The translations under genes were made by a program, and so were the position numbers. This document shows positions 9,300-46,466 of a stretch of 64,000 nucleotides of DNA, one piece after another. Source of the stretch: an uncultured bacterium (GTDB taxonomy: Bacteria > Omnitrophota > Gorgyraeia > Duberdicusellales > 4484-171); the NCBI GenBank assembly GCA_913050175.1, contig CAJXAF010000001.1, positions 1,126 through 65,125 of the forward strand, read 5' to 3'. Each line of letters begins with the position of its first letter. Position 1 is the first letter of the stretch. The notes beneath the pieces were generated by a model, which saw nothing but the letters and a program-made list of their open reading frames with translations, ran no database searches and had not been told where the DNA came from.

Positions 9300-10211
9300 A
9301 TGCCGATAAAATTAATTAAGAAATTATTTTTAAAAACACTACCTTTATTCTTGTCTTTGGTAATTGTTTTTAATCCCCTGGCCCAACCAGAACAAAAGAG
9401 CAGTAAAACTTTTCTTTGGGAAACTAAGAGTAACCAGAGTAAAATTTATATCCTCGGTTCAATTCACTTGGCCAAAGATAGTTTATACCCCTTAGATGAA
9501 AGAATTGAGAAAGCCTACCTTGAGTCTGATTACTTAGTTGTCGAAATAAATATAAACGATTTAGACCCAACAGAGATCCAAGAAAGGTTCTTAAAAGTCG
9601 GCATGTATTTAGACGGGGATACATTTAAAAATCATATTTCTTCTGAAACTTACGATCTTGCCGCCAAAAAGCTAGCCGATCTTGGTATAGACGTAGCTTA
9701 TATGGGGTTTTATAAACCTTGGTTTTTAGCTATTAGTTTAGTAACTCTTGAGTTGGTTAAATTAGGCTTTGATCCACAAAAAGGCATTGATCAGTATTTT
9801 TTAAATAAAGCTAAAGGCCAAAAACCAATCTTAGAACTTGAAAGCCTTAAATACCAATTAGATCTCTTTGGTTCATTTACTGACCAGGAGCAGGATTTGT
9901 TTCTTCTCTCTACTCTATCCGATTTAGATATTCTTCAAAGTGAAGTTGACAATATGTTTGCGACTTGGCAGAGGGGTGATGCCCAAGCTTTATCTGAACT
10001 CATGTATAAGAGTTTCGAAAAATATCCTCAAACTAAGTCTATATACTATAAGCTCTTTACCAAGAGAAACAAAGAAATGGTTTCTAAGATTGAGAAGTAC
10101 CTAGGGAGTGATAAGACTTACTTTGTGGTTGTCGGTGCCGGGCACCTAGTTGGTGATAAAGGGATCATAGCTTTATTGAGGGAGAAGGGCTACCAACTCA
10201 ATCAATTATAA
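9300..10211 (+). CDS. TraB/GumN family protein (secreted/periplasmic)
   Basis: Signal-like N-terminus, ILGSIHLAKDSLYPLD… and C-terminal VVVGAGHLVGDKGIIALLREKGY are characteristic of TraB/GumN (pfam01963-type) proteins. Confidence 0.75.
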   Translation: MPIKLIKKLFLKTLPLFLSLVIVFNPLAQPEQKSSKTFLWETKSNQSKIYILGSIHLAKDSLYPLDERIEKAYLESDYLVVEININDLDPTEIQERFLKVGMYLDGDTFKNHISSETYDLAAKKLADLGIDVAYMGFYKPWFLAISLVTLELVKLGFDPQKGIDQYFLNKAKGQKPILELESLKYQLDLFGSFTDQEQDLFLLSTLSDLDILQSEVDNMFATWQRGDAQALSELMYKSFEKYPQTKSIYYKLFTKRNKEMVSKIEKYLGSDKTYFVVVGAGHLVGDKGIIALLREKGYQLNQL

Positions 10212-10229
10212 TAAAAATAGGGGGAATGA

Positions 10230-10691
10230 ATGAGAAGAATTACTCTGATATGTTTATTTATGATTTTTAGTCTTACTATTGTGGGTAGTTTTGCTGAAAA
10301 CAGAATAAGTTCAGCCGAAGATGTAAGTAGTAAAAGGACTCTCATGATTGGAGATCCTATATACCAAACTACATTAAAAATCAATGACTCTTCTTATGAG
10401 TTTTATCACATCAAATTAAGGTATATTGGTATTGATAAAAATGTTGTGGAAGTAAGATATGAGTTCAAAGAGGATACCTCTGAAGCTGGGCCTAAACCAA
10501 AAGAAGAAGCCATGACTTTAATATTCCCCTTAGATGAGAAAGAAGAAACATATATAAGAATCCATCAACTCCCCAAACTCCCCCAAAAATTGACAGTACC
10601 GGCTACAACATTAGTACTTAAAGTAGATGATAGACACAATCATCTAGTTACGGTAGAAGAATTCAGAGATGAAAGTAAGTATCTAGATTAA
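10230..10691 (+). CDS. Hypothetical secreted protein
   Basis: N-terminal signal peptide (ITLICLFMIFSLTIVGSFA), RBS agggggaatg; no motifs. Confidence 0.5.
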   Translation: MRRITLICLFMIFSLTIVGSFAENRISSAEDVSSKRTLMIGDPIYQTTLKINDSSYEFYHIKLRYIGIDKNVVEVRYEFKEDTSEAGPKPKEEAMTLIFPLDEKEETYIRIHQLPKLPQKLTVPATTLVLKVDDRHNHLVTVEEFRDESKYLD

Positions 10692-10693
10692 TT

Positions 10694-10948
10694 ATGAGTA
10701 AGCAAACTAAAGATTCAAATATCTGGCGTTACTTTGAAAGCAAGTTAAAAGAGAGTCCTTTGGTCAAATTTATAAAGCAATACCCAAGGGTTTCTTTGGT
10801 AATTGGTATTATTTTATGCTTAGCCGTCTTAGCCCTGCCCCTATCCTTAAAAGATAAAATTCTCCTACCCCTAAGAGCTATAGCCGTTGGTCTTATAATT
10901 GCCTCAGCAGTCTTTATTGTAAAATTGAAAAAGCTGCCCCGTGATTAG
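10694..10948 (+). CDS. Hypothetical small membrane protein
   Basis: Two predicted TM helices; tightly packed after preceding ORF. Confidence 0.4.
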   Translation: MSKQTKDSNIWRYFESKLKESPLVKFIKQYPRVSLVIGIILCLAVLALPLSLKDKILLPLRAIAVGLIIASAVFIVKLKKLPRD

Positions 10949-11001
10949 ATTAAGTTTTTATTGTTGATTGACTGCTAATATTTGTAAGTTATAATGAAAT
11001 A

Positions 11002-11274
11002 ATGAGGATATTAACTTTACTAATATCTGTAATTATTGTTTTTAGCGGTTGCAGCAATAATTACTTAAGTAATTCCAAAACCACTCATCTCGCTCCTAGC
11101 CTTAGAGGTTTAAGCCAGAAAAATATCTACTCAAGATTTGGCGAGCCAACTAAAAAACAAATTTTGGTTGACTTTGATCGCCGTCGGGAAGTTTGGCACT
11201 ATCATCATAAGCATAAGCCATCTTTGAGAGTAGTTTTTTCTGATGGTTATGCAAGCAAGGTTTCATACCGTTAG
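11002..11274 (+). CDS. Hypothetical lipoprotein
   Basis: Lipobox-like LLISVIIVFSGCSNN at N-terminus. Confidence 0.45.
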   Translation: MRILTLLISVIIVFSGCSNNYLSNSKTTHLAPSLRGLSQKNIYSRFGEPTKKQILVDFDRRREVWHYHHKHKPSLRVVFSDGYASKVSYR

Positions 11275-11297
11275 ACTTTGGGAGGAGGGAGATAGTT

Positions 11298-11486
11298 ATG
11301 AAGAATTGTCCTTTTTGCGCTGAAGAAATTCTCTCAGAGGCCATAAAGTGTAAGCATTGCGGGGAATTTCTTTCAAAGAAACCAGCAGCAACATGGTACC
11401 AACGGCCATTTTCTATAATTGTTGCTTTTCTCTGTGTTGGCCCCTTGGCTTTGCCTTTGATTTGGTTTCATCCTAAGATTAGCTAA
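11298..11486 (+). CDS. Zinc-ribbon plus C-terminal TM small protein
   Basis: CPFC…CKHC zinc ribbon followed by hydrophobic helix; RBS ggaggaggg. Confidence 0.5.
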   Translation: MKNCPFCAEEILSEAIKCKHCGEFLSKKPAATWYQRPFSIIVAFLCVGPLALPLIWFHPKIS

Positions 11487-11622
11487 GCTTTAAAAATCAC
11501 TATAAGCCTGGTTGTCGTAATTGCCAGTTATTTTTTTGGTGTAGTATTTCTTAAGTCTTTAGCAGCAGTAAAACAATATTATCAGACGATAGATTCTTAT
11601 CTCAACTAATAAAGGTATAGAT

Positions 11623-12003
11623 ATGATTAGAAAAATACTTCTTGCTGATGACGATAAAGATACTGTTGATTTCCTAAAGAGGAGTTTAGAAAGAGAAGGT
11701 TTTGAGGTTAGCACTGCCTATGATGGTCTTTTAGCAAAAGAGGCTTTGGATAGTAATGAATTTGACCTTATAATTTTAGATTTGATTATGCCTGAATTCA
11801 ATGGCTGGCAGGTGTTGAGATGGTTAAGGCATGAAAAAAAACTTCTTACTCCGACTATTATACTTTCAGCAAAAGATCAAATAGCTGACATGCAAAAAAG
11901 TTATGATTTAAATGCTGATACTTATTTAATAAAACCAATTGATGTCAGCGATATTATCAGCGCAATAAAGATGTTATCTTCTTTGGGTTTTAAGAATAAT
12001 TAG
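11623..12003 (+). CDS. Stand-alone response-regulator receiver (CheY-like REC) protein
   Basis: ILLADDDKDTVDFLKRSLEREGFEV…DLIILDLIMPEFNGWQVL…SAKDQ…YLIKP: phospho-acceptor Asp pocket and conserved T/K positions; no output domain. Confidence 0.85.
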   Translation: MIRKILLADDDKDTVDFLKRSLEREGFEVSTAYDGLLAKEALDSNEFDLIILDLIMPEFNGWQVLRWLRHEKKLLTPTIILSAKDQIADMQKSYDLNADTYLIKPIDVSDIISAIKMLSSLGFKNN

Positions 12004-12042
12004 TTTTAGATAGACTTTAAAGAAATTCAAGGAATAAATTAT

Positions 12043-12411
12043 ATGCAACGTGATTCTGTAGATCGTAGGCGTTTTATTCATATTAAATTCCCCTTTACTG
12101 TTCACGTACGCCCTCTTGATAAACAGCCTATAGCTGCTTATTCCGAAGATATTAGCCAAGAAGGCATTAAAGTAACTATTAAGGACGAATTGGCAATAGG
12201 AAGTTTAACTGACTTGGAAGTTTTCATTCAGGCTGAACCTATTAAGTGCAAAGGAAAGGTCGTCTGGGTTAAAAAAAGAGATAGCAAGTATATTCAAGAT
12301 GAAATTTTTACTGACACAGGTATTGAATTTTATGATTTAAGTGAAAACAATAGTGCCTTAATCAAAGAACACATAAGTACTTTTAGTAAGACAAGCGGTT
12401 TTATTGAATAA
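12043..12411 (+). CDS. PilZ-domain protein (putative c-di-GMP receptor)
   Basis: Arg-rich N-terminal stretch DRRRFIHI, DISQEGI (DxSxxG) and GKVVWV β-strand motif; immediately downstream of REC gene. Confidence 0.6.
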   Translation: MQRDSVDRRRFIHIKFPFTVHVRPLDKQPIAAYSEDISQEGIKVTIKDELAIGSLTDLEVFIQAEPIKCKGKVVWVKKRDSKYIQDEIFTDTGIEFYDLSENNSALIKEHISTFSKTSGFIE

Positions 12412-12434
12412 AGCTTTAAGTAGGAGGTTATCGA

Positions 12435-12767
12435 ATGGGTTCACAAAGCTTAGGAGATCTGTTTAAGCACTATCTAAATCCTTTAGCTGATTTTCAATTT
12501 ACGCTTAATAACCCTGTATTTTGGCTATTGCTTTTTATATTATTTCTTTGCTTGTTACGATTTTGGGATATTAAGAAATCTTTATCTTTTTGTTTGGTTT
12601 CCGGTAGCATTCTTTTAGCTGCTACAAAAGTAGAAGAGATATTCGGTAATACAATTAAAGCCAGTGGTGAGCCCTTTGATCCTTTAATAGTTAGATTGGT
12701 TGCAATGATTTTTATTGCTATAGTTGTTTTGTACTACTGTTTTATCAAAACCGAGTCAGGGTATTAA
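12435..12767 (+). CDS. Hypothetical membrane protein
   Basis: Three hydrophobic helices; RBS aggagg. Confidence 0.45.
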   Translation: MGSQSLGDLFKHYLNPLADFQFTLNNPVFWLLLFILFLCLLRFWDIKKSLSFCLVSGSILLAATKVEEIFGNTIKASGEPFDPLIVRLVAMIFIAIVVLYYCFIKTESGY

Positions 12768-12867
12768 TTTGACAGGTAGCTGTTTTTATCTCTACAGTTT
12801 GTGACTTTCCTAAAGAAGTTAAATTGAAATAAAAATTTATATCAGTATAGATTCCAGAGGAGGGTTT

Positions 12868-13302
12868 ATGAGAATAAGCATTTTTTTATTTTTTTTATTT
12901 ACAGTTTGCAATAATTTAATATTTGCTGAAACAATAGTGCTTAACTCCGGAGAAGAAATCCAGGGGAAAATCGTTGAAAAAACCGATGCTTACATAAGAA
13001 TTTCAGATCCATCCGGTTTTCTCACGAAGCATGATAGTTCTGATATTAAAGATATTATCGATGATGCACCTGTATTTATAGAAGAAACCGAGCCTATTAG
13101 TGCAGCTGAGCCGATTTCTGACCCGGTAAGGCAAGAGCTTAGTGATAATTTAAAGAAAACTGAAAGCATGATTCAAGACACCTTAAAAGCTCTCTACCCC
13201 GCTCCTAAGAAAAGATCCGGTAACCAGGAAAAAGAGTCGGATAAGAGCAGCCTTCAAGAAGAAATAGACCGCAAATATAAGGGTTATGATAAATTTTACT
13301 AA
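12868..13302 (+). CDS. Hypothetical secreted protein with N-terminal β-motif shared with the 17916 protein
   Basis: Signal peptide then ETIVLNSGEEIQGKIVEKTDAYIRIS; RBS ggagga. Confidence 0.5.
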   Translation: MRISIFLFFLFTVCNNLIFAETIVLNSGEEIQGKIVEKTDAYIRISDPSGFLTKHDSSDIKDIIDDAPVFIEETEPISAAEPISDPVRQELSDNLKKTESMIQDTLKALYPAPKKRSGNQEKESDKSSLQEEIDRKYKGYDKFY

Positions 13303-13310
13303 AAATATCT

Positions 13311-13772
13311 ATGCGAGTTAGCGATCATGTAATTTACTGCCTTCCTCTTTCTTTAGCATTTTCCCTATATTTAAAATCACCGCTGCCAGGACTGTTATGT
13401 CTTGCTTCGGGAGTATTAATCGATGTTGATCATACTATTGAATATGTACAAGCATATGGTTTTAATTTAGGCTGCTTAAAGAAACTTCTTATAGCCACCC
13501 AGGTGAAATCTAAGAATAAAAAGATCTCTGATTTTAAGAAAATGTATCTTATTTTTCATAGTTTAGAATTTGTTATTATTTTTTGGATTATAGGTTTAGC
13601 TACTAAAAACCTATATTTTATAAGTGCAATTTCCGGGTATAGTCTACATATTTTACTTGATTTTATCGGTAACAGAGAGTATCCAAGATTTTATTGGATT
13701 ATCTGGCGGGCTAAAAATAAATTTTTGGTTGAAAAAATACTGCGTGTAGAAATCAATAAAGAACAATTATAG
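13311..13772 (+). CDS. Hypothetical polytopic membrane protein (possibly YdjM/DUF457-type metal-dependent hydrolase)
   Basis: Membrane helices with conserved His/Asp (IDVDHTIEY…HSLEF…HILLDFIGN); assignment tentative. Confidence 0.35.
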   Translation: MRVSDHVIYCLPLSLAFSLYLKSPLPGLLCLASGVLIDVDHTIEYVQAYGFNLGCLKKLLIATQVKSKNKKISDFKKMYLIFHSLEFVIIFWIIGLATKNLYFISAISGYSLHILLDFIGNREYPRFYWIIWRAKNKFLVEKILRVEINKEQL

Positions 13773-13808
13773 CAGTAATTTAGAAATATTAATTAAGAGG
13801 ATTCGGTT

Positions 13809-14797
13809 TTGAGAAAATTACTCATAGTTTGCTTGCTGCTTAGCTTAATTGCTTGTAATAGCCAAACCCCCCCAAACAGAAATCCAAACTCAATGTTAGT
13901 AAGGTAGAAAGCATTGGAGCAAAATCAGATGCTGGGGCAGATATTGCTCTCAATGGTATTATTTACGATGAAGGCCAGTCTTTAGCAATAATAAACGGTC
14001 AGATTTACTATCAAGGCGATTTCATAGGTCAGAATCAGATAATTGACATAGCAAGTGATTATGTACGGTTTAAGGCCAAAGATAGTGAGGATCATTCGAT
14101 AGTAAGACTATCTAGTGATCATAAAGAAGTAAGCGACCAGAAGTATTCGAAAGAAAAGTCTGTCAAAAAGGAGGAATCACGCCAATATCTTTTTGCCAAA
14201 GCTAAGCTTATAGATACAGAAGATTATCTTATCTTTATACCTGAGAAAACTAATTTTAACGATACCTATCCTTTAATTGTATTTTTTACTCCTGATGCCG
14301 ACACCAAAGGAACACTAAAGCATTTTAAGGATCTTGCTCAAAAATATAAGTGGCTGCTTTTTATATCTAAAGAGTTTCATATTGGTGTTGATATGGCTAA
14401 GGTAATTACTGATTTAGCTCTAACAATCGAAAGTTTATCAGAGAGCCTTCCAATAGATAAGTCTAAAATAATAGTAAGTGGATTTTCAGCCGGAGCAATG
14501 GGGGCTCATTTTTTTTCTTATGCAGAGCCTAAACTTATCTCAGCAATCATAATTAATAGTGGAACAATTCACCAGGATCTCAAAGGTGTAGTAACAGGTC
14601 ATCCAAAGTCAAAACGAGTAGTTTTCCTGGCGAGTCCGACCGATTATGGATACAAGAGCATGCTAGAGGATAAGCGATTTTTAGACAGCCTTGGTTGGAA
14701 GACTAAATGGATAGAATTTAAAGGTGGCCATAGACTCGCTCCTAAAGATATATATGAGAAGGCTTTTGCCTGGCTAAAAATTCAGTTTAGAGAGTAA
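13809..14797 (+). pseudogene. Lipoprotein α/β-hydrolase (esterase/PHB-depolymerase-like) interrupted by a frameshift at a C7 homopolymer; intact reading would give ~329 aa
   Basis: TTG start 8 nt after SD aagagg gives signal peptide MRKLLIVCLLLSLIAC (lipobox) that stops at 13905-13907. Downstream frame is open from 13862 to 14797 with no ATG until 14393. It encodes GFSAGAMGAH (GxSxG nucleophile elbow) and esterase-like C-terminus. One extra C in the C7 run 13867-13873 fuses both frames. Confidence 0.65.
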
Positions 14798-14884
14798 AAA
14801 GACCATAAAGGCATTAGGTTTTAAAACCTTTTCTACTTTTGAGCTCTATGCTATAATTTTCTAGTTCTCTATCATAAATTAAAA

Positions 14885-15775
14885 ATGATAATGTCTGCAG
14901 AAAAGCATAAATTAGAAGGAAATTTAGCCAATTGTCTTATAATTGGGGCACAGAAGTGTGCAACCTCAAGTTTATTCCATTATCTTAGCTTCCATCCCAA
15001 TGTCATTGCCTCAGCCCATAAAGAGCTTAATTTCTTTAATGAGGAGCTTTGTTGGGATAAAGGGCTTAATTGGTACAAATCTAATTTTGTAGGCAAAGCT
15101 AAAATTTATCTCGAAGCCTCACCTAGTTACACAAACTATCCCTTATATAAAGGCGTAGCCAAACGAATGCACTCTTTAATCCCCCAGGCAAAATTGATTT
15201 ATATAGTAAGAGACCCGATAGAGAGGTTAATTTCCCAATACTTAGATAGAGTCAAAGGCGGTCAGGAAACTCTTGCAATCGAAGATGCTTTTGTTGAGGG
15301 AGAAGATTCTGTATATATTGATTTTAGCAAGTATTATATGCAGTTAGAGCAGTTTTTAAATTATTATCCTAAAGAATCGTTTCTGATTTTAACAGCCGAA
15401 GAATTAAAAAATAAGCGCAGAGAAACTTTAAAGAGAGCATTTCGGTTTTTAAATATTGATGATGATTTTTATTGTGATGAGTTTTCCGACTTAATAAATG
15501 TTTCACGTGGTAAGTTAAAACGGAAAAAACCAAGGAGAATTGTTCGTTATTTTGCCCATGGCCCCAAGAAAAAGACTTCTTTTAGCAAATTAGGCTATGC
15601 AATGATCCCTAAAATCTTAAAGGACAAGGCTTTAGAATCAACAAAAACAGGGCAAAAGGTCTATCGACCTCTTTTATCCGAAGATCTAAGAAATAAGTTA
15701 ATCGAAGCCCTTAGGGCTGATATAGCCAAGTTAAGGGAGTTCAGCGGATGCAGTTTTAGCCAGTGGTGTCTGTAA
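14885..15775 (+). CDS. PAPS-dependent sulfotransferase (heparan-sulfate 3-O-sulfotransferase-like family), cytoplasmic
   Basis: CLIIGAQKCATSSLFHYLSFHP (5'-PSB P-loop) and LIYIVRDPIERLISQY (3'-PB motif); no signal peptide. Confidence 0.7.
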   Translation: MIMSAEKHKLEGNLANCLIIGAQKCATSSLFHYLSFHPNVIASAHKELNFFNEELCWDKGLNWYKSNFVGKAKIYLEASPSYTNYPLYKGVAKRMHSLIPQAKLIYIVRDPIERLISQYLDRVKGGQETLAIEDAFVEGEDSVYIDFSKYYMQLEQFLNYYPKESFLILTAEELKNKRRETLKRAFRFLNIDDDFYCDEFSDLINVSRGKLKRKKPRRIVRYFAHGPKKKTSFSKLGYAMIPKILKDKALESTKTGQKVYRPLLSEDLRNKLIEALRADIAKLREFSGCSFSQWCL

Positions 15776-15809
15776 TTTTTTTATGTTATAAATTAATAAA
15801 GGGGGGATT

Positions 15810-16235
15810 ATGGATAAGGGAATGAACATTATAAGCAAAATTACTAACTGGGTAAAGGCAATCTCTTCTCCGGGTAACTTAAGAAGTATATATGCAAAAT
15901 ATTCTACCCCTGTGTTTTTTCTCTTTGGTTTTTACATCCTTTACTGTTTATGCTTGATGCAGTTTATTATTTCTAAGTATAAATCTGCTGTTAATAATAA
16001 AGAAGCTTTTCTAGTAGTTTTCAAAGCAGCTGTTGGTAATGCCGTAATATTTTCAATTGGGTTAGCTATTTTGAGTTTTTGTCCTCAAACTAAGGCGGCT
16101 TCCCTCTTAAGTAGTTTTTTAGATGAACACTTTCCTTCAGCAATTATGCCCTTTATAATATCCCTAGGATGTATTATAATAGCATTTGTCTGGGCAGGTT
16201 TAACTAAAATCATTTCTACCAATAAAGATAAGTAA
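15810..16235 (+). CDS. Hypothetical polytopic membrane protein
   Basis: 3-4 TM helices, RBS aaaggggg. Confidence 0.45.
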   Translation: MDKGMNIISKITNWVKAISSPGNLRSIYAKYSTPVFFLFGFYILYCLCLMQFIISKYKSAVNNKEAFLVVFKAAVGNAVIFSIGLAILSFCPQTKAASLLSSFLDEHFPSAIMPFIISLGCIIIAFVWAGLTKIISTNKDK

Positions 16236-16267
16236 TATTTATCTTTATTGTAAGGGAATATCAATAT

Positions 16268-16486
16268 ATGACTCTATCAAAGTTAATGACAGTTCTGGGA
16301 TTTCTGGTGATTCTAACCGGGGTTCATAAGCTTTATTGCTCAATTAAGCCTGAGTCTGAGAGATGTTCTGTTTCTCCTGGCGAGGAGCCTTTTGAGGGAG
16401 CGACAGTAAATGAAAAGCTTTACACCTCAGGAGTTCGTTTTATTATATATGGATTTCTTATTCAATTGTTGAGGTTAGTAGTTTAA
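16268..16486 (+). CDS. Small two-TM membrane protein, paralog A
   Basis: …LTGVHKLYCSIKPESE…SGVRFIIYGFLIQLLRLVV; paralogous to ORF 16833..17063. Confidence 0.5.
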   Translation: MTLSKLMTVLGFLVILTGVHKLYCSIKPESERCSVSPGEEPFEGATVNEKLYTSGVRFIIYGFLIQLLRLVV

Positions 16487-16538
16487 ATCATACAAAAAAA
16501 TAGATTTAAGATATATAATTTATGAGGAGGAAGAGATA

Positions 16539-16811
16539 ATGAAATGTTGTCAGTGTAATAGCCCTAAAGTGTCTAACGGGAGAATTTTTAACCAAATAGA
16601 TTATATTGCTCCAGCAGCCTATTTTAGGCCCAATGGTTTAAGGACCTTTGCGATATTAGACACTAATGTTAGGATAAAAAATATTTTTTATAGTTGTTTG
16701 GATTGTGGATTTGTCTGGGGTGAGATTGACCCAGTTAAACTAAAGAAAGTAATAATTGAAAAAGCAACTGATAGCACTAAAGAAAGGCTAGATTTAAACA
16801 AAAAACAATAG
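16539..16811 (+). CDS. Zinc-ribbon small protein
   Basis: MKCCQCNSPK… CLDCGF two Cys pairs; strong RBS gaggaggaag. Confidence 0.5.
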   Translation: MKCCQCNSPKVSNGRIFNQIDYIAPAAYFRPNGLRTFAILDTNVRIKNIFYSCLDCGFVWGEIDPVKLKKVIIEKATDSTKERLDLNKKQ

Positions 16812-16832
16812 TTTAATAATAAAAGGAGGATC

Positions 16833-17063
16833 ATGGACAATGTCATAGATTATTCAACTTACCTTACAATATTGGGTCTTCTTACAACCTTAACAGGTAT
16901 TTATAAGCTACATCACTCAGTTAAAACTAATCCAGCCACTGAAATAACCTATCATGCTAAAGAGCCACATGATGCTGCAATAATCGATTATCATCAAGCA
17001 AGGTCAGGATTACGATTTACTATTTATGGTTTCTTAATACAAATGCTTACGGTAATATTTTAA
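16833..17063 (+). CDS. Small two-TM membrane protein, paralog B
   Basis: …LTGIYKLHHSVKTNP…SGLRFTIYGFLIQMLTVIF; RBS aaaggagg. Confidence 0.5.
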   Translation: MDNVIDYSTYLTILGLLTTLTGIYKLHHSVKTNPATEITYHAKEPHDAAIIDYHQARSGLRFTIYGFLIQMLTVIF

Positions 17064-17116
17064 GTGTTAAGTTATTTATCAGAAGAAAATATACTTCTAG
17101 TAAATTCAAAGTTCAG

Positions 17117-17395
17117 ATGAGATGCAATATTTTTTATCTTATTGCTGGTTTTGCCCTTCTTGTCAGTGCAGCTCTAACTAATTTACCGTCAAAAGAAGTA
17201 ATAAATCTTATAAATCCTGATAATCTATATAGTTTTCTTTCAAGGTTTCTTATGGATTCGGCAAAAACACCTTTAACCTGGGTGGGAATAGTTTTGCTAT
17301 TTTTTAGTTTTCGTGAACCAAAAGCTAAGATAAAAAAAGTAAAACTAGAAGCTAACGACAATCAAGGTAAAGATTTAAATAAATTAAAGACATAA
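17117..17395 (+). CDS. Hypothetical membrane protein
   Basis: Two hydrophobic helices, Lys-rich tail. Confidence 0.4.
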   Translation: MRCNIFYLIAGFALLVSAALTNLPSKEVINLINPDNLYSFLSRFLMDSAKTPLTWVGIVLLFFSFREPKAKIKKVKLEANDNQGKDLNKLKT

Positions 17396-17414
17396 AATAC
17401 TAAGAGGAGTTTTT

Positions 17415-17822
17415 ATGGATGGTTCTAAAAAAAGTGTGATCTTGATTATAATTGCTCTTTTAGTTGCCGGTATAATTGGATTAAGTTTCTATAGATCCCA
17501 GCGAGCTCCGACTATAGCAGTTGAGAAGATCTTAAGCTTTTGGCGCCCAGGTTATCATAATCTTGTTGGGGAGTACTGGCATAAAGATTCACGATATGAG
17601 ACTTTGTATAATGTAAGGCAATATAAAATTCTTAAATCAGAAATTAGAAAAGACCAAGCCAGAGTTATAACTAGAGTTAATTATATTACCGGCCATAAGT
17701 TGAAATTAGAAAATATATTTACCTTTCTCTTGAGCAAATCTAAAGGAAAGTGGAAGGCTTATAGGTACTATAAGGGTTTTAAAGATACTGAGACGAAAAA
17801 CAGAAGGGCCTTCTTGAATTGA
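17415..17822 (+). CDS. Hypothetical N-terminally anchored protein
   Basis: RBS aagaggag; single N-terminal TM. Confidence 0.45.
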   Translation: MDGSKKSVILIIIALLVAGIIGLSFYRSQRAPTIAVEKILSFWRPGYHNLVGEYWHKDSRYETLYNVRQYKILKSEIRKDQARVITRVNYITGHKLKLENIFTFLLSKSKGKWKAYRYYKGFKDTETKNRRAFLN

Positions 17823-17830
17823 GTTTATCT

Positions 17831-17914
17831 ATGACTGATACAAAAGTAAGAAAAATATTAGTAGTCGACGATGGGGAGGAGAACCTTAAGCTTTTAAATG
17901 AGAGAGGTATTTAA
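17831..17914 (+). pseudogene. 27-codon remnant resembling the N-terminus of a response-regulator receiver domain
   Basis: MTDTKVRKILVVDDGEENLKLLNERGI* matches the β1-α1 start of REC domains (ILVVDD…) then terminates. Confidence 0.3.
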
Positions 17915-17915
17915 A

Positions 17916-18920
17916 ATGAAACAAAGAAGATATTTGTTTTTAATTTTTTCTTTAGCATTTTCCTTCTATTTTTGCGGAAGTTCTTTTGCTGATATAGTTT
18001 TTCTAAAAAATGGCCGGGAATTAGAAGGGCAAATAATCAAGGAAGATGAATTAAAAATTTGGTTGCTTACTTATGGAAATGCTAAGATAGGCATAAAGAA
18101 ACGAGAAATATTAAAAATTGAACCTCAGGAATTTATAGCCAAAGATAGCAAGGCTCGTGGCGATACCACAAAGTCTAAAGGTCAAGCTAAAGGAAGCAAA
18201 AAAAGTAAGTACAATGTTATCTCTACTGAGGTTGTGTATGATGATATGGCCCGTAGCGATAAGAAAGATATTTATACTAAAGATTACTCAATCAGCGGCA
18301 CAACCTACCAACAAGTGCGCTTTAAAGACGGTAAAGCTATAGGTAAACACGTAGAATACAATAAAGACGGCACAGTTAAGTTGCAAGTCAGTATGTTAGG
18401 TAGTAAAAAAGAAGGAAAATTTGTCAGTTATTATAAAGGGGGTAGTATTAAGTATGAGGGTGAGTATGCGGGAGACTTAAAATCTGGTCTGCATAAGCAT
18501 TATTGGCCAAATGCTAGATTAAAATCTAAAATAACTTATAGATTAGATAAAAAGCATGGTTTAGCCCAAACCTTTTATGAAAGCGGAGAGTTGTTTGAGG
18601 AAGCTTATTATGTTGACGGCAAAAAGAGCGGAGAACAAAAACAATACTATAAAAGTGGTAAAGTATTAGCAGAGATGACTTATTTTAATGATGAGCCTCA
18701 AGCTAAGGGCAAAAAATATTATGAGAACGGTAAAACTCAAGAAGAGTATTTTTATGATCTCGGCGTAACAAAAGCTTACTTTGAAAGTGGAAAAATTAAG
18801 AGTGTAATTAACTTTAAGAAACTAAAGTATATTGAGTATGATGTTGAAGGTAATATCATTTATAATGGTGAACTGACCGATGAAATGGCAAATAAAGTTA
18901 AAGATCAAGATGACGAGTGA
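17916..18920 (+). CDS. Secreted MORN/YwqK-type repeat protein
   Basis: Signal peptide MKQRRYLFLIFSLAFSFYFCGSSFA (start chosen at second Met, SD gagagg) followed by DIVFLKNGRELEGQII motif. C-terminal half has ~23-aa repeats G-x-Y…G-x-x-x-G-x-Y (KEGKFVSYYKGGSIKYEGEY…, YYVDGKKSGEQKQYYKSGK…, KKYYENGKTQEEYFY). Confidence 0.6.
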   Translation: MKQRRYLFLIFSLAFSFYFCGSSFADIVFLKNGRELEGQIIKEDELKIWLLTYGNAKIGIKKREILKIEPQEFIAKDSKARGDTTKSKGQAKGSKKSKYNVISTEVVYDDMARSDKKDIYTKDYSISGTTYQQVRFKDGKAIGKHVEYNKDGTVKLQVSMLGSKKEGKFVSYYKGGSIKYEGEYAGDLKSGLHKHYWPNARLKSKITYRLDKKHGLAQTFYESGELFEEAYYVDGKKSGEQKQYYKSGKVLAEMTYFNDEPQAKGKKYYENGKTQEEYFYDLGVTKAYFESGKIKSVINFKKLKYIEYDVEGNIIYNGELTDEMANKVKDQDDE

Positions 18921-18945
18921 ACTATCTTAAAGGGAGGGATTAATC

Positions 18946-19116
18946 ATGGATTATTTTCAAGAAGCTGCAAACTGGTTTACTGAGGCTGAACATCTTTTCT
19001 TTAAGGACGAAACTCAGGCAAAGCAATTATTTTGTTCTGCCATGAAGAACCTCACCCTAGGCATGGGTGAAATCAAGACTTTATTAGAAAAAAAAGCCTC
19101 TCAAGATAACAACTAA
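18946..19116 (+). CDS. Small 56-aa hypothetical protein (below ORF-track cut-off)
   Basis: ATG 7 nt after SD aagggaggg; fills the 207-nt gap before the PilZ gene. Confidence 0.35.
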   Translation: MDYFQEAANWFTEAEHLFFKDETQAKQLFCSAMKNLTLGMGEIKTLLEKKASQDNN

Positions 19117-19127
19117 GGATTTTTTAG

Positions 19128-19481
19128 ATGAAAGAAAGAAGACATTTTCCCAGACTGGATATAACTAAGATAGACGTTTCTTGGACAAAAGATGATAATA
19201 ACAGAGAAACTGACAAGGTAAAAAACATTGCCGGCGGTGGGATTCGTTTAATATTGGATAAGGGTAATGTTAAAATCGGTGACATAATTAATTTAAAATT
19301 TAGTTTACCTAGCGGAGATGAAATTACTTCAAAAGGGAAAGTTATTTGGGTTAGAGCTTTTGAGATACTCGGTAATAATACTGAAGTCATCAATGAAGCT
19401 GGAATTGAATTCATTGATATCAGCCAAAAAGATAAATTTCTCATTAATCAATACATATTTTCCTTAATGCCACCAAAATAA
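19128..19481 (+). CDS. PilZ-domain protein
   Basis: RRHFPR (RxxxR), NIAGGGI (D/NxSxGG), GKVIWV. Confidence 0.8.
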   Translation: MKERRHFPRLDITKIDVSWTKDDNNRETDKVKNIAGGGIRLILDKGNVKIGDIINLKFSLPSGDEITSKGKVIWVRAFEILGNNTEVINEAGIEFIDISQKDKFLINQYIFSLMPPK

Positions 19482-19494
19482 AAAGGAGGGCAAA

Positions 19495-19953
19495 ATGCTT
19501 GCAAAAAAATTCGCTTTAGGATTTGGTCTCGCTATTATATTACCGATGATGATCCATTACGGTGTAAGCACATTTGTGGAACAACCTAAATGGGGAGATT
19601 ATCAGATAAGGGATTATTATCAACGCCATAAAGATGCCTCTCCGGAAGAGAAAAAAGAACTTCAAGCCAAAAGAGATCGCTTGCATGACGAGAGGAAAGT
19701 GAAAGAAAAACATTTTCAAAAGTATTTGTTCTTTGCAGCCATACCTCTAGGGATAACTGCAATTATTATTGGAGCTTTCCTTCCCATACAAGCAATTGGA
19801 ACTGGACTTATGTTTGGGGGCATCTTTAGCGTCTGCGATGGGTATATAAATTATTGGTCAGAATTAAGTGATGGTTTAAGATTCATCTCCTTGGTATTTG
19901 CATTTATCGTACTCATAGTTATTGGCTACAAAAAACTTGAAAGCAAAGCCTAG
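19495..19953 (+). CDS. Hypothetical membrane protein
   Basis: RBS aaaggaggg; 3 TM helices. Confidence 0.5.
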   Translation: MLAKKFALGFGLAIILPMMIHYGVSTFVEQPKWGDYQIRDYYQRHKDASPEEKKELQAKRDRLHDERKVKEKHFQKYLFFAAIPLGITAIIIGAFLPIQAIGTGLMFGGIFSVCDGYINYWSELSDGLRFISLVFAFIVLIVIGYKKLESKA

Positions 19954-20011
19954 CAGTCTAATCTAGCTGATATTCAGGCAACCAAAACCTTTAGTGAGAG
20001 ACAAAAATCAC

Positions 20012-20039
20012 TTGCCTAAAATAGACCCTATGCTATAAT
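20012..20039 (+). promoter_or_regulatory. Putative sigma70 promoter for tRNA-Phe (TTGCCT-16-TGcTATAAT extended -10)
   Basis: ttgcct at 20012-17, tgctataat at 20031-39, ~60 nt upstream of tRNA start. Confidence 0.5.
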
Positions 20040-20101
20040 TTTTCTCTGTTGCATTGAAAATTAAGTGTTATTTTTTCTATTAACGAAATCTACCGCTAGA
20101 T

Positions 20102-20177
20102 GGCGAGGTAGCTCAGACGGTAGAGCGAGGGACTGAAAATCCCTGCGTCAGGGGTTCGATTCCCTTCCTCGCCACCA
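20102..20177 (+). tRNA. tRNA-Phe (anticodon GAA), CCA encoded
   Basis: Cloverleaf: acceptor GGCGAGG/CCTCGCC, D-arm GCTCAGACGGTAGAGC, anticodon loop CTGAAAA, T-arm GGTTCGATTCC, 3' ACCA. Confidence 0.92.
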
Positions 20178-20181
20178 TAAT

Positions 20182-20210
20182 AAAGGAAGGCTTAAACGCC
20201 TTCCTTTGCT
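20182..20210 (+). terminator. Intrinsic terminator after tRNA-Phe
   Basis: 10-bp perfect stem aaaggaaggc/gccttccttt with 6-nt loop followed by T-rich tract. Confidence 0.7.
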
Positions 20211-27123: not shown

Positions 27124-28359
27124 TTGAGTAATAGTAAAGAGATTAAAATTACGCCTTTTGAATTAACCACTGAGGCAGGAGCTATCAAATTAATGACCTC
27201 CTTAGGCGTGACCAGTCAGGGGATTAAGATTTTAGCTGCTAAGAGCATCTTCTGCGCTTTTTTAATTAAAGGCATAAAATCCTGGGAAGCAAACATCATC
27301 AAGCAGCACCTCTTATCTTTAGGCTCTGATGCTGCAATTGAGCGTGATGCTTTGGTAAAGGATATAAATACAGACATTCTTATTTTTGGTAGCCGAAGCC
27401 AATTGAAACGCTTAAGTAATAAGCTAAAAGGACAGCCCTTTAGCTTAAAAGAAGTATCGAGGTTAATATCCTTATATTTAGAAAATTTGGAAAAAAAAGA
27501 ATTTGTTTTTCTGGCAAGAAAAAAAACCTTAAAAATAAGAAAGCCAATTGTTTGCGGAATAATTAATCTAACTAAAGATTCTTTTTCCGGCGATGGTTTA
27601 TTAGCTAAAGCAACAAGTTCAAGTGAGAAGATAAAGTTTCTGGCTTTAAAGAAAGCCGAACAAATGATAAAAGAAGGTGCTAAGATTCTTGATATTGGGG
27701 CTGAATCTTCGCGACCCTTTGCCAAGCAGCTTAGAGTTAAAGAAGAACTCGCTCAATTGATACCGGTAATTAAAGCAATACGTAAGGAATTTAAGAAAAT
27801 TCCCCTTTCAGTGGATACCTATAAATATCCGGTTGCTTATGAGGCAAGCTGTCTTGGCATTGATATTATAAATGATATAACAGCTTTAAGGCATAACCCT
27901 AAAATAGCCGATATCATAAAAAAGAACTCTTTAGGCTGTATTCTTATGCATATGAAAGGCAGCCCTTTGACTATGCAGCTTAATCCTTACCATAAAGACG
28001 TTGTTTGGGAGATAATTTCTTTTTTTAAAGACAGAATTAACTTTTTGAATAAAAAGGGCATTTCCCAAAACCAAATATGTCTTGATCCGGGAATAGGCTT
28101 TGGTAAAAGGTTAGAAGACAACACAAGGATAATTAACGAGCTTTATAAATTAAAAATTTTCGGTCTACCAATTTTCCTAGGTTTATCACGAAAATCATTT
28201 ATTGGGAAAATTCTTAAAAACAATATAGATCAGCGTCTGGCGGGAACTATAGCAGCCAATGTAGTCTCCATTAATAAGGGAGCAAATATTTTAAGAGTTC
28301 ATGATGTAAAAGAAACAGTCGAAGCTATTAAAATAGCTTCTAGTATTAATTTAAATTGA
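27124..28359 (+). CDS. folP: Dihydropteroate synthase with ~135-aa N-terminal extension
   Basis: Pterin-binding domain starts IVCGIINLTKDSFSGDG…; preceding 135 aa have no recognisable motif. Confidence 0.85.
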   Translation: MSNSKEIKITPFELTTEAGAIKLMTSLGVTSQGIKILAAKSIFCAFLIKGIKSWEANIIKQHLLSLGSDAAIERDALVKDINTDILIFGSRSQLKRLSNKLKGQPFSLKEVSRLISLYLENLEKKEFVFLARKKTLKIRKPIVCGIINLTKDSFSGDGLLAKATSSSEKIKFLALKKAEQMIKEGAKILDIGAESSRPFAKQLRVKEELAQLIPVIKAIRKEFKKIPLSVDTYKYPVAYEASCLGIDIINDITALRHNPKIADIIKKNSLGCILMHMKGSPLTMQLNPYHKDVVWEIISFFKDRINFLNKKGISQNQICLDPGIGFGKRLEDNTRIINELYKLKIFGLPIFLGLSRKSFIGKILKNNIDQRLAGTIAANVVSINKGANILRVHDVKETVEAIKIASSINLN

Positions 28360-29120
28360 TGGATTTTCTTGCTCGACCCATAAATTGGAAAGATATAGTT
28401 GAAGTAATAATTCTCTGGATTGTTATCTACCGTATTTTTCTTTTTTTAAAAGGAACAAAAGCTATCTATTTACTCCGGGGCATTGTTTTTCTAGTTGTAG
28501 CTTTGTTAGGTTTTCAACTATTTGATTTTCCGGTTTTAACCAGGTTACTCACATACTTTTTTGCTTTTTTTATTATTTTGGTTACAATAATTTTTCAACC
28601 CGAACTTAGAGACGGTCTTATCCATTTAGGTAAACGTCATATATTTTATATTGAGCCAAAAAAAGAGGAAATTGAGAAAACCTTGCGGGAAATAGTCTCA
28701 GTAGCAGGAGTCCTTTCCCGAAAAAAAATCGGTGCCCTTATCGCCATTCAAAGAGAGATACCGCTTAAAAGATATATTGAGAGCGGCGTAATATTAAATG
28801 CTGATATTAGCGCAGAATTGCTTCAGAGTATATTTTATCCCGGAGCCACCCTGCATGATGGAGGAGTTGTAGTAACCGGTAGAAGCATTATCGCCACTTC
28901 TTGTCTTTTCCCTTTAAGTGAGAATCCTGCTCTGGAAAGAGCTTTAGGTATGCGTCACCGGGCAGCTGTTGGTTTATCTGAACATTCGGATGCCTTGGTA
29001 ATAATTGTATCTGAGGAAAATGGTTCAGTTTCTTTAGCTATTAACGGACAATTGACTCGTAACTTAGCACCCAATGACTTACTTACAATACTAAAAGGGC
29101 AGTTGTCTAAACCACGTTAA
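28356..29120 (+). CDS. cdaA: Diadenylate cyclase CdaA (membrane-anchored DAC domain, c-di-AMP synthase)
   Basis: Three N-terminal TM helices then DAC motifs GALIAIQRE…HDGGVVV…RHRAAVGLSE. Confidence 0.88.
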   Translation: MMDFLARPINWKDIVEVIILWIVIYRIFLFLKGTKAIYLLRGIVFLVVALLGFQLFDFPVLTRLLTYFFAFFIILVTIIFQPELRDGLIHLGKRHIFYIEPKKEEIEKTLREIVSVAGVLSRKKIGALIAIQREIPLKRYIESGVILNADISAELLQSIFYPGATLHDGGVVVTGRSIIATSCLFPLSENPALERALGMRHRAAVGLSEHSDALVIIVSEENGSVSLAINGQLTRNLAPNDLLTILKGQLSKPR

Positions 29121-32674: not shown

Positions 32675-33025
32675 ATGCAAGAAGAACGCCGGGAAAAAAT
32701 CAGGATAGAGGAATCTTTAACTGTTAGACATTCACCCGCTAAAAGTCTCTTTATTAGTTCATCTGAGACTAAGAATATTTCAAGCGGCGGCCTGTGTTTT
32801 CCTGCTTTGCAGAGACTGGAACCGGAAATGGCCCTGGATCTTGATATTGATTTACCGGGTTTTAAAGAACCCATTAAAGCTGAGGCTAAAGTAATCTGGC
32901 TATCTGAAATAAGTGATATTAATCACCGTTATGATGTAGGGGTGCAATTTGCAAAGATAAGTTCTACCGACCACAGTAAAATACTCCACTATATTTCCAG
33001 CAAATTCGATAATTTAAATATGTAA
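32675..33025 (+). CDS. PilZ-domain protein
   Basis: RREKIR, NISSGGL, AKVIWL. Confidence 0.8.
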   Translation: MQEERREKIRIEESLTVRHSPAKSLFISSSETKNISSGGLCFPALQRLEPEMALDLDIDLPGFKEPIKAEAKVIWLSEISDINHRYDVGVQFAKISSTDHSKILHYISSKFDNLNM

Positions 33026-33822: not shown

Positions 33823-34134
33823 GTGCATAATGAATCATTTGGACATCGTAGATCTTCTAAAAGAAGAGCATGTTTTTTAGCTGCTGGGTATTTATTGTTT
33901 GATAAAGCTCCTTACCTTGCAAAATACCATGATATTAATCTTGATGGTATAGGAGCAATAGTTGATAAACCTTTACCGGTTAATATACAGGTTAAAATAG
34001 CTCTCAATACAAAAAAGAAAGGTTTGGTTTTAGTTAAGGGCAAAGTATGTTGGTGTAAAAAAGCCCAGCTTGGCTGGCGCTTAGGAATATCTTTTAACCG
34101 TAAGCTATCGTATGAAACTACTATGATTGCTTAG
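33823..34134 (+). CDS. PilZ-domain protein (divergent)
   Basis: RRSSKRR (RxxxR), DINLDGIG (DxSxxG with S→N), GKVCWC; SD agggaggcc. Confidence 0.65.
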   Translation: MHNESFGHRRSSKRRACFLAAGYLLFDKAPYLAKYHDINLDGIGAIVDKPLPVNIQVKIALNTKKKGLVLVKGKVCWCKKAQLGWRLGISFNRKLSYETTMIA

Positions 34135-34137
34135 GTA

Positions 34138-34503
34138 TTGCTTTATAAAAATGGCTTTTTAAAAGATAAGGCTATTATGATTCAAAGAAGAAAACAAAAA
34201 AGAGTTAAAATATCATTTCCAATTGAGTGCGATTGCCTGTCTCACCGTAACTATTTCTGCTCAGTCAGCAGGGATTTGAGTTTAACCGGGATACAAACCG
34301 TAAATAATAGTTTTATACCTAAAGATAGCATAGTAAAGATCAATATTAACCTTATTGATAGATTTGTAAGCTTAAAAGCTAATGTTATCTGGAGCATAAA
34401 AAAGAGAGCCTCAGAAAGATATTCTACTGGTCTAGAGTTTATTGAAACAACTCAGGCCCATAAGAGGCATATCACTCACTTCCTACACAACCTCACTGCT
34501 TAA
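34138..34503 (+). CDS. PilZ-domain protein
   Basis: RRKQKR, DLSLTGI, ANVIWS; true start may be Met at 34177 (MIQRRKQKR). Confidence 0.75.
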   Translation: MLYKNGFLKDKAIMIQRRKQKRVKISFPIECDCLSHRNYFCSVSRDLSLTGIQTVNNSFIPKDSIVKININLIDRFVSLKANVIWSIKKRASERYSTGLEFIETTQAHKRHITHFLHNLTA

Positions 34504-34809: not shown

Positions 34810-35178
34810 ATGAATGAATATGGTGGTTCAGAGAGAAGAGGGCATCCGCGAGTTGATGTAAATTTTGTTGTAAGTTACAGGATTCAAGAAACAGCTCACG
34901 ATTACGATCTTTCTCAAACAAAAAATTTAAGTCAAGGCGGTATGCTTCTTACAACAAATAAAAAATTTACTCAAGGTACATGTTTATCTATGATTTTACG
35001 TTTTCCCTTGATACCACAGAAAATCGAAGTTACTGGAATAATTGTAGATTCTAAAGAAGTAGTAAGAGACATTATCTATGAAACAAGAATACAGTTTCTG
35101 GATTTGGATAAAGAATTTTTCTATAAATTAGGTGAGTTTATCAAGGATAATTTGAAGGATGACCTAAAGAATGATTAA
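34810..35178 (+). CDS. PilZ-domain protein (overlaps hom start by 8 nt)
   Basis: RRGHPR, NLSQGGM; SD ggcgaggagg; stop TAA inside ATGATTAA of hom. Confidence 0.8.
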   Translation: MNEYGGSERRGHPRVDVNFVVSYRIQETAHDYDLSQTKNLSQGGMLLTTNKKFTQGTCLSMILRFPLIPQKIEVTGIIVDSKEVVRDIIYETRIQFLDLDKEFFYKLGEFIKDNLKDDLKND

Positions 35179-41344: not shown

Positions 41345-41519
41345 TATTGGGCGAAAAGGCAAAACGCCTGAAAAGGCGTTACGGCACACCAGATTTTTAG
41401 TGTGCCCTCATATTTTATATGAGGCAAAACTTAAGAACCTAAGGTCGAAAAGACTAAGGCAGTCAGTTATCGAATCATTTCTTCTTACTACCTATGGTCT
41501 TATGCTATAGGTTTTTTTA
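41345..41519 (+). ncRNA. Candidate structured small RNA / leader with intrinsic terminator (no ORF)
   Basis: Consecutive hairpins: cgcct-GAAA-aggcg (GNRA tetraloop, 41365-41378), ggcacac/gtgtgcc 7-bp stem (41383-41406), cctcata/tatgagg 7-bp stem (41406-41424). Terminal hairpin cctatgg…ctatagg + T8 (41491-41519). Possible promoter ttgaaa-17-tataca at 41287-41315. Confidence 0.35.
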
Positions 41520-41627
41520 TTTCCAGGGGCTTATTTAAGTTAAGATAAGTTTGTGGCTTATATAAATTTAGTTTACCGGTGGTTTTCTCAAAGAGAGGTC
41601 AAAATGAGTAAAAACGGAGGTGACAAA

Positions 41628-44241: not shown

Positions 44242-44247
44242 ATTTCT

Positions 44248-46421: not shown

Positions 46422-46466
46422 ACTGATTAGTTTTTGTCAAAATGTTTATTCAAAAGGAGGTGGCTT

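Follow-up and report, generated by a model that had tools for sequence, protein, structure and literature searches.

A putative cytoplasmic PAPS-dependent sulfotransferase of a marine Omnitrophota bacterium, related to bacterial XssA and 3RNL and a candidate for the sulfation of envelope sugars

The gene considered in this study lies on the forward strand at positions 14885–15775 of a 64-kb stretch of contig CAJXAF010000001.1 (the whole stretch analysed is referred to here as the window), which comes from an uncultured marine Omnitrophota bacterium. It encodes a sulfotransferase of 296 amino acids, the stop codon being included in these coordinates, that scores above the cut-offs of the Pfam sulfotransferase families and carries the motifs for binding 3'-phosphoadenosine-5'-phosphosulfate (PAPS). 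Public gene calls use an alternative start at ATG 14891 (the second methionine), which gives a product of 294 residues, and the 296-residue version exists in one public call as well; the exact start is immaterial, as the first 13 residues are unconserved in the alignment and are modelled with low confidence. A protein that is 100% identical (P0001) was found on independent contigs from ENA, JGI and Tara Oceans (station 37, mesopelagic), and the open reading frame (ORF) is intact in all four of the independent assemblies. Neither a signal peptide nor a transmembrane (TM)-like segment was found in the 296-residue protein by a hydropathy scan, so the enzyme can reasonably be taken to be soluble and cytoplasmic, a location that is as expected of a PAPS user.

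The window protein is a member of the PAPS-dependent sulfotransferase superfamily. In the profile search it matched Sulfotransfer_1 (PF00685; 50.3 bits against a cut-off of 22, E 2.9e-13), Sulfotransfer_3 (PF13469; 42.1 bits, cut-off 27, E 1.6e-10) and Sulfotransfer_2 (PF03567; 24.9 bits, cut-off 22), and there was no match to it among the NCBIfam models, which leaves no curated equivalog name to carry over. The best sequence match in the Protein Data Bank (PDB) is 3RNL (E 2.4e-18, covering residues 16–294 of the window protein), with the heparan sulfate (HS) 3-O-sulfotransferases 3-OST-5, -1 and -3 at 1e-16 to 4e-13 and the sulfotransferase domain of NDST1 at approximately 1e-8. A sequence-only reading of this DNA had claimed an ORF at 14885–15775 with two quoted PAPS-binding motifs, and both are present exactly as claimed, with Pfam and PDB matches far beyond chance. 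The search with sulfotransferase profiles, which that reading had set beforehand as a possible refutation, was positive, so the assignment stands.

Residue conservation was assessed over 40 aligned homologues, the most distant of them at 35% identity, and the features described here are all on the forward strand. The 5'-phosphosulfate-binding (5'-PSB) loop, IIGAQKCATSSL (residues 19–30, 14939–14974), contains the GxxKxGT/S pattern with the predicted catalytic lysine as G21-A-Q-K24-C-A-T27-S28, in which G21, K24 and T27 are invariant among the 40 homologues, and it aligns with GVRKGGT of HS 3-OST-1 and -5. The predicted catalytic base, Glu47, lies in KELNFF (residues 46–51, 15020–15037), of which K46, E47, L48 and F51 are invariant, and HMMER alignments place K-E47-L-N-F-F-N against N-E-V-H-F-F-D of 3-OST-1. 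The catalytic base of the animal enzymes is Glu90 in 3-OST-1 and Glu184 in 3-OST-3, which hydrogen-bonds the acceptor 3-OH, with in-line transfer of the sulfuryl group (PMC8341778). The 3'-phosphate-binding (3'-PB) motif, YIVRDPIERLISQY (residues 106–119, 15200–15241), presents the RxPxxRxxS strand-helix as R109-D-P-I-E-R114-L-I-S117, with R109, P111 and R114 invariant and S117 at least 90% conserved, and aligns with ILRDPSERVLSDY of 3-OST-1. The roles given here to the PAPS-binding and catalytic residues of the window protein are predicted by homology. A Lys/Arg-rich C-terminal segment, NVSRGKLKRKKPRRIVRYFAHGPKKK (approximately residues 205–230, 15497–15574), is also apparent in the alignment and is modelled with a predicted local distance difference test (pLDDT) score of 68–80 over residues 201–230. 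The KLKR-KKPRR form of this segment (NVSRGKLKRKKPRRIVRY…) is confined to the closest subclade; contact with the 3'-phosphate, or with a membrane or anionic substrate, may be conjectured as its role.

The AlphaFold2 model, which was built on the alignment, has a mean pLDDT of 89.9 and a predicted TM-score (pTM) of 0.82, the weaker regions being the N-terminus and residues ∼201–230 and 251–260. Together with the Foldseek matches, it predicts one alpha/beta domain built around a parallel central sheet, which is the architecture of solved sulfotransferases. Against the PDB, Foldseek placed 3RNL first (1.8e-13, root-mean-square deviation 2.7 Å), with the 3-OSTs and NDST1 next at 1e-13 to 1e-10, and then, after a gap of at least seven orders of magnitude, CurM-ST (6e-6) and TPST and the cytosolic SULTs (1e-4 and worse). 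Among the matches listed, the top 50 in the PDB are all sulfotransferases, all with E ≤ 1.5e-3. The likeness to animal carbohydrate sulfotransferases proposed in the sequence-only reading is thus borne out by the profile models, sequence matches, predicted structure and residue conservation, and the XssA/3RNL bacterial clade is the sister group of the animal HS 3-O- and N-sulfotransferases.

Other types of sulfotransferase fit these data poorly. An arylsulfate (PAPS-independent) sulfotransferase was rejected, as both fold and family differ, and the cytosolic SULT type, which uses a histidine base, was rejected as well, its sequence matches covering only residues ∼100–190 with E ≥ 5e-4 and its Foldseek matches reaching E 1e-4 or worse with TM-scores of 0.35–0.5. 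The same SULT matches bear on the idea that the protein sulfates a protein or peptide tyrosine, as RaxST and TPST do, or tailors a natural product in the manner of StaL or CurM-ST. The superfamily fold and PAPS motifs are common to all of these, and Foldseek does find CurM-ST (6e-6) and TPST (1e-4), but such a role is very unlikely, as 3RNL, 3-OST and NDST match better by 7–9 orders of magnitude, the TM-scores for CurM-ST and TPST are 0.4–0.5, and the window contains no precursor gene for a ribosomally synthesised and post-translationally modified peptide, no polyketide synthase gene and no nonribosomal peptide synthetase gene.

The gene is native to its genome. Its GC content (0.35) is the same as that of the remainder of the window, where the composition profile is flat throughout (0.32–0.39), and recent horizontal acquisition, or location on an island, was rejected on this even composition. 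The gene order around the sulfotransferase is reproduced only in one related metagenomic genome, L004, in which the orthologue shares 59% identity. This is comparable with aroC (63%), prepilin peptidase (64%) and aroE (50%) in the same pair of genomes, whereas the flanking lipoprotein (36%) and adjacent membrane protein (28%) are far less conserved. Judged by these sequence comparisons, the gene is vertically inherited and under strong constraint (purifying selection), because its orthologue is conserved at the level of housekeeping genes. The adjacent lipoprotein gene is frameshifted in the window assembly, which could be read as a sign of local decay, but that the sulfotransferase itself is a decayed or non-catalytic relic is very improbable indeed, given an ORF intact in four independent assemblies, the retention of the PAPS-binding and catalytic residues and the 59% identity of the L004 orthologue.

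Bacterial members of this family had been thought uncommon in the sequence-only reading, and this proved wrong. An exhaustive phmmer search over 1.84 billion cluster representatives at 50% identity returned 29,405 matches at E ≤ 1e-3, 12,788 at E ≤ 1e-10 and 822 at E ≤ 1e-30, and the strongest of these are nearly all full-length proteins of ∼270–310 residues. When one genome per GTDB species was scanned by pattern, at least 563 loci with relatives were confirmed, among other groups in Solirubrobacterales and other Actinomycetota, cyanobacteria, Omnitrophota, Gemmatimonadota, Desulfobacterota and Pseudomonadota, as well as in Desulfatiglandales, Syntrophobacteria, Vicinamibacteria, Rhodothermales, Trueperaceae, Microvirga and Gammaproteobacteria, and further relatives were found on 214 plasmid records (Sinorhizobium, Phaeobacter, Synechocystis and others). 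Some family members have extra domains, with the sulfotransferase domain occupying residues 2–271 of 717 in P0133 and 144–420 of 450 in P0195. The window gene is therefore an ordinary addition to a large and common bacterial family, with nothing unexpected in its sequence, structure or distribution.

The strongest match on a plasmid is to the gene that opens the xss cluster of Synechocystis pSYSM, and from this leading place in the sll5042-60 cluster the gene is taken to be xssA (sll5042). The window protein matches XssA along its full length (residues 18–288) with 30% identity (E 5e-29), and of XssE, the second xss sulfotransferase, only an 18-residue stretch near the 3'-PB motif matches (E 8e-4). 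XssA is the closest genetically studied relative found: cells from which xssA has been deleted no longer accumulate the sulfated exopolysaccharide synechan (PMC8205485), and synechan sulfation is placed together with the glycosyltransferases on the cytoplasmic side of the Wzx/Wzy pathway (PMC8205485, PMC13125312). A homologue on S. meliloti pSymB (27% identity) is on an unannotated record and yields no context, and the literature provided no paper on 3RNL and nothing useful on sulfotransferases in Omnitrophota.

The association of relatives with glycan clusters was surveyed at 19 taxonomically diverse loci, using ORF calls filtered by GC content at third codon positions, which gave 117 proteins within 4 kb. 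The commonest Pfam families among these are the glycosyltransferase (GT) families GT2 (18) and GT1/GT4 (7), Wzx-type Polysacc_synt (6) and further Sulfotransfer_3 proteins (3). When cyanobacteria and Solirubrobacterales are left out, 69 neighbours remain, including seven GT2, four GT1/GT4, two flippases, two sulfotransferases, two PMT_2 and one Bac_transf. An earlier ORF-based clustering of neighbours was discarded on account of lineage synteny in Solirubrobacterales and spurious antisense ORFs in high-GC DNA (clusters 12, 16 and 18). One group of Solirubrobacterales has a GT28-like gene, the sulfotransferase and Wzx in that order, with other sulfotransferases near. The homologue P0013 (46% identity; L097, 611–4758) is followed by a 288-residue Wzm-like gene, Wzt (ABC_tran and Wzt_C) and GT2. 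At a locus of this type, sulfate might act as a chain-terminating cap that is read by the ABC exporter, for which the methyl or phosphate caps that terminate other exported chains offer an analogy.

Some of the closer relatives suggest another kind of substrate. P0005 and P0008 (56–57%; L006, 6738–8855, and L091, 6710–8864) come directly after a eukaryote-type hexokinase gene (Hexokinase_1/2), in a block that also holds GATase_7, NAD_synthase-like, ATP-grasp and alanine dehydrogenase genes and an OprB carbohydrate porin; this block may represent a small-molecule pathway for a sulfated sugar. P0007 (54%; L096, 316–3451) has a NodU-type carbamoyltransferase gene and then an SxtJ-like gene after it, with GT2 further on. 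The enzyme could accordingly be envisaged to act on a small soluble acceptor (for instance a free sugar or sugar phosphate, an osmolyte or a secondary metabolite), and not on a polymer or lipid-linked glycan: the hexokinase block resembles small-molecule metabolism more than polymer assembly, the carbamoyltransferase and SxtJ-like families beside P0007 are also known in toxin pathways, and several close homologues, like the window copy, stand alone. We regard this as an unlikely alternative, albeit one that deserves to be kept in view, as the neighbours across the family are mainly glycosyltransferases and flippases, the nearest genetically studied relative works in exopolysaccharide (EPS) synthesis, and the structural neighbours are polysaccharide sulfotransferases, with small-molecule SULTs ∼9 orders of magnitude worse. 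A carbohydrate acceptor is the best-supported reading for the family when the genetics of XssA, the GT and Wzx neighbours and the sulfated exopolymers of Pontiella (see below) are taken together.

The window protein is very probably an active PAPS-type sulfotransferase. With moderate confidence, we propose that it is a cytoplasmic enzyme of the XssA/3RNL-like clade, PAPS-dependent and with a glutamate base, which adds sulfate to a sugar on an envelope-bound glycoconjugate prior to its export. PAPS would be held by the 5'-PSB loop (Lys24, Thr27, Ser28) and the 3'-PB element (Arg109, Ser117), and Glu47 would deprotonate a hydroxyl (or amine) of the acceptor, which would then attack the sulfuryl group in line, with Lys24 stabilising the transition state and the leaving group, 3'-phosphoadenosine-5'-phosphate (PAP). 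The chemistry is predicted to be 3-OST/NST-like and the acceptor site to be different. The likeliest acceptor is a sugar of an envelope glycan; the glycoconjugate would be assembled on the cytoplasmic face of the inner membrane, with a lipid-linked repeat unit, an O-antigen, capsule or EPS chain, a lipopolysaccharide (LPS) core or a glycolipid as candidates. Once exported, the product would form a sulfated and strongly anionic glycan on the surface of the diderm Omnitrophota cell.

Several observations weigh against an envelope-glycan acceptor. Within 5 kb of the gene there is no glycosyltransferase, flippase or polymerase gene, either in the window or in the syntenic L004, and the sole nearby sugar-related gene is an NTP_transferase 4.5 kb downstream, past a tRNA gene. 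The closest homologues (51–60%) are found in mutually unrelated contexts: P0010 (51%) has xseB on one side and rpsO on the other, and P0005 and P0008 come after the hexokinase, GATase_7 and NAD-synthase genes. At somewhat lower identity, P0016 (45%) lies between fmt and gap and P0023 (42%) among radical-SAM genes. The functions of the close relatives are, from their sequences, predicted ones only. A glutamate base is also used by sulfotransferases that do not act on carbohydrates (CurM-ST and TPST). Finally, the acceptor is not readable from the HS enzymes, because the HS-binding residues of 3-OST are not conserved, His92, Asp95, Lys123, Arg67 and Arg72 being replaced in the window protein by Asn49, Asn52, Ala78, Gln23 and Ser28, respectively.

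The genes that flank the sulfotransferase in the window are not glycan genes, and they give no reliable clue to the acceptor, because the gene order is kept only in L004 and the other homologues lie in unrelated contexts. Immediately upstream, with a gap of 88 nt, is the gene for a lipoprotein with a predicted alpha/beta-hydrolase domain (13809–14797, forward strand; TTG start, lipobox LIAC, GFSAG nucleophile elbow). Its Abhydrolase_2 match is borderline (22.8–24.3 bits against a cut-off of 23), and the gene is frameshifted in the window at a run of seven cytosines (C7; 13870–13876) just past the lipobox. The C7 run occurs in the window and in a Tara scaffold (L003), and a run of eight (C8) with an intact gene of 329 residues in the ENA and JGI contigs from the same population (L001 and L002, respectively); over the 20.9 kb compared, this indel is the sole difference between the window and the ENA contig. 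The split may reflect either heterogeneity in the population through slipped-strand events resembling phase variation, or an assembly error at a homopolymer.

Downstream, the first ORF follows after 35 nt and begins a series of six small ORFs on the forward strand (15810–17822; 141, 72, 90, 76, 92 and 135 residues), none with a Pfam family, the order of which is the same in L004. Four of the six have TM-like or N-terminal hydrophobic segments and one is Zn-ribbon-like, and the gene of a secreted MORN-repeat protein comes after them. The 72-residue (16268–16486) and 76-residue (16833–17063) ORFs are apparently paralogous, with the shared pattern ...LTG..KL..S...SG.RF.IYGFLIQ..., and bracket the 90-residue Zn-ribbon-like ORF (16539–16811); only the 72-residue member scores for TM-like segments. 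The 72-, 90- and 76-residue ORFs share 51–68% identity with their L004 counterparts, which is above most neighbours. A promoter and terminator scan of 11000–20200 did no better than on shuffled sequence (38 sites against 33.4 expected) and was not used for operon definition; the only terminator-like sites close to the sulfotransferase gene are inside its own ORF.

The sequence-only reading had placed the gene beside a lipoprotein esterase in an envelope-gene neighbourhood. The lipobox and the GFSAG elbow agree with the first of these descriptions, which is weakened by the borderline domain match and by the frameshift in the window. The second is descriptively true, in that 12 of the 17 correctly translated neighbour ORFs (9300–19953) have an N-terminal hydrophobic or TM-like segment, but no recognised envelope-biogenesis family was found by Pfam among the ORFs of this region. 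The functional link to the lipoprotein and membrane genes that was implied is not supported, as the arrangement is found in L004 only and the other close homologues examined (45–57%) have unrelated neighbours.

This setting also bears on a special case of the envelope-glycan proposal, in which the enzyme would be dedicated to LPS (its lipid A or core) or to a membrane glycolipid, the modification being a constitutive feature of the envelope. Such a role would explain both the housekeeping-like conservation and a location outside any accessory polysaccharide cluster; that conservation is seen in a syntenic block, with membrane and lipoprotein genes on either side, LptF and LptG are present, and the Lys/Arg-rich segment specific to the subclade could touch an anionic membrane. 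An Omnitrophica homologue (L008, 51%) has GT9 (heptosyltransferase family) and GT2 genes 3–6 kb upstream, and at the L092 locus a monogalactosyldiacylglycerol-synthase-like GT lies 4 kb upstream of the homologue and an AsmA-family gene downstream. Unrelated housekeeping genes, however, separate the GT genes of L008 and L092 from the sulfotransferase, making this context weak, and no gene for LPS-core or lipid A biosynthesis adjoins the sulfotransferase in the window, so this narrower version of the proposal seems distinctly unlikely.

Among the annotated genes of the 64-kb window there are no members of the ATP-sulfurylase, adenosine 5'-phosphosulfate-kinase or CysDN families, which agrees with the earlier observation that PAPS-synthesis genes are absent from it; the scope of this result is the window alone. 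The window is otherwise ordinary chromosome, with biosynthetic genes (ilvBNC, leuA, aroE, aroC, hom, thrC, argCJBDFGH, lysA, dapFAB, folP and pdxJ), other housekeeping genes (tilS, ftsH, cdaA, acpS, gpsA, argS, recJ and lptF/lptG) and five tRNA genes. The named proteins closest to the window's ArgS (57–70% identity) all come from Candidatus Omnitrophica/Omnitrophota metagenome-assembled genomes, which places the source in this phylum. The host is diderm, with LptF and LptG encoded in the window. Nearly all credible genes are on the forward strand, the clear exceptions being lptF, lptG and a ComF-like gene (42066–44910), and GC skew is positive in every 2-kb bin; gene co-orientation is thus strong, presumably with replication.

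Genes for nucleotide second messengers are a further feature of the window. Seven stand-alone PilZ-domain proteins are encoded in the 64 kb (12043–12411, 19128–19481, 32675–33025, 33823–34134, ∼34138–34503, 34810–35178 and 46864–47217), an unusually dense set of cyclic di-GMP (c-di-GMP) effectors for a small genome, and twice a single-domain response regulator lies directly upstream of a PilZ gene (11623–12003 and 46434–46841). A match to the c-di-GMP-I riboswitch (41348–41474, forward strand; E 0.0037) is borderline at 35.1 bits against a gathering score of 35, yet plausible because PilZ proteins are abundant, and it precedes an ORF of 144 residues (41553–41987) without a Pfam family. A CdaA-type diadenylate cyclase (DAC and CdaA_N; 28356–29120) adjoins folP, so that signalling by cyclic di-AMP is present alongside the many c-di-GMP effectors.

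For a single gene the stakes are modest, in that it is one more predicted carbohydrate-type sulfotransferase, and it corrects the impression of bacterial rarity. Omnitrophota are ultra-small and reportedly host-dependent, and the identity of the acceptor would reveal what kind of anionic surface these tiny cells have. A bolder possibility, which we advance only tentatively and consider doubtful, is a sulfated glycan that is constitutively present on the surface of Omnitrophota (a coat resembling glycosaminoglycans (GAGs), or a sulfated LPS), together with a wide occurrence of sulfated glycans well beyond cyanobacteria. Such a coat would be the product of a sulfotransferase that stands alone and is conserved as housekeeping genes are and, if it exists, might help these cells to attach to partner cells or to particles in the mesopelagic ocean.

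Among bacteria, sulfated polysaccharides have been stated to be a cyanobacterial speciality (PMC8205485). The XssA-like genes found in GT/Wzx/Wzt clusters of Solirubrobacterales, Gemmatimonadota, Rhodothermales, Desulfobacterota and others would, if they act as predicted, mean that these polysaccharides are widespread, and the location of the family mostly inside glycan-assembly clusters across many phyla may indicate that sulfated bacterial polysaccharides are under-recognised, a point that is not specific to the window. Enzymes for making sulfated glycans are a stated bottleneck (PMC13125312), and the window enzyme, if its acceptor were identified, would be a bacterial and soluble tool for their synthesis.

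Of the known systems, XssA offers the closest comparison with a studied pathway. XssA (301 residues) has in common with the window protein the GxxKxxTS loop, the K-E-x-N-F-F motif, the RxP-x-x-R-x-x-S motif and a C-terminal extension, and it is likewise soluble, acting with PAPS cytoplasmically in a Wzx/Wzy pathway (PMC8205485, PMC13125312). The genetic setting differs: XssA is encoded within a 19-gene EPS cluster that includes eight glycosyltransferases, Wzx, Wzy, a polysaccharide co-polymerase and the second sulfotransferase, whereas the window gene has no polysaccharide-assembly cluster nearby, though many of its relatives do. With only 30% identity the acceptor sugar need not match, and the host of the window gene is a non-photosynthetic marine Omnitrophota bacterium.

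Among solved structures, the best match in both sequence and structure is 3RNL, a structural-genomics entry from Alicyclobacillus acidocaldarius that has no functional annotation. The two proteins share a C-terminal region that the animal enzymes lack, yet their identity is only ∼22%. The animal enzymes HS3ST1/3/5 and the NDST domain have the fold in common with the window protein, and their PAPS-binding lysine, arginine and serine and their glutamate base align with it. In 3-OST-3, His186, Asp189, Lys215 and Arg166 are important for activity (PMC8341778), and the equivalent positions of the window protein are Asn49, Asn52, Ala78 and Ser28. The animal HS3STs are moreover Golgi-luminal type II membrane proteins, whereas the window protein has no TM segment or signal peptide, and the bacterial clade has its own C-terminal extension in comparison with them. 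Membership of the HS3ST family itself was rejected, as the substrate-contact residues and the membrane-anchored Golgi topology are both missing.

A third comparison is offered by Pontiella (Kiritimatiellae), marine bacteria in which a sulfated exopolymer was shown chemically and GAG sulfotransferases are predicted (PMC7356697). The likeness here is by description, the Pontiella genes being predicted ones, and consists in a marine, non-cyanobacterial host with PF13469-type enzymes, one gene of which lies in a GT2/GT4 cluster.

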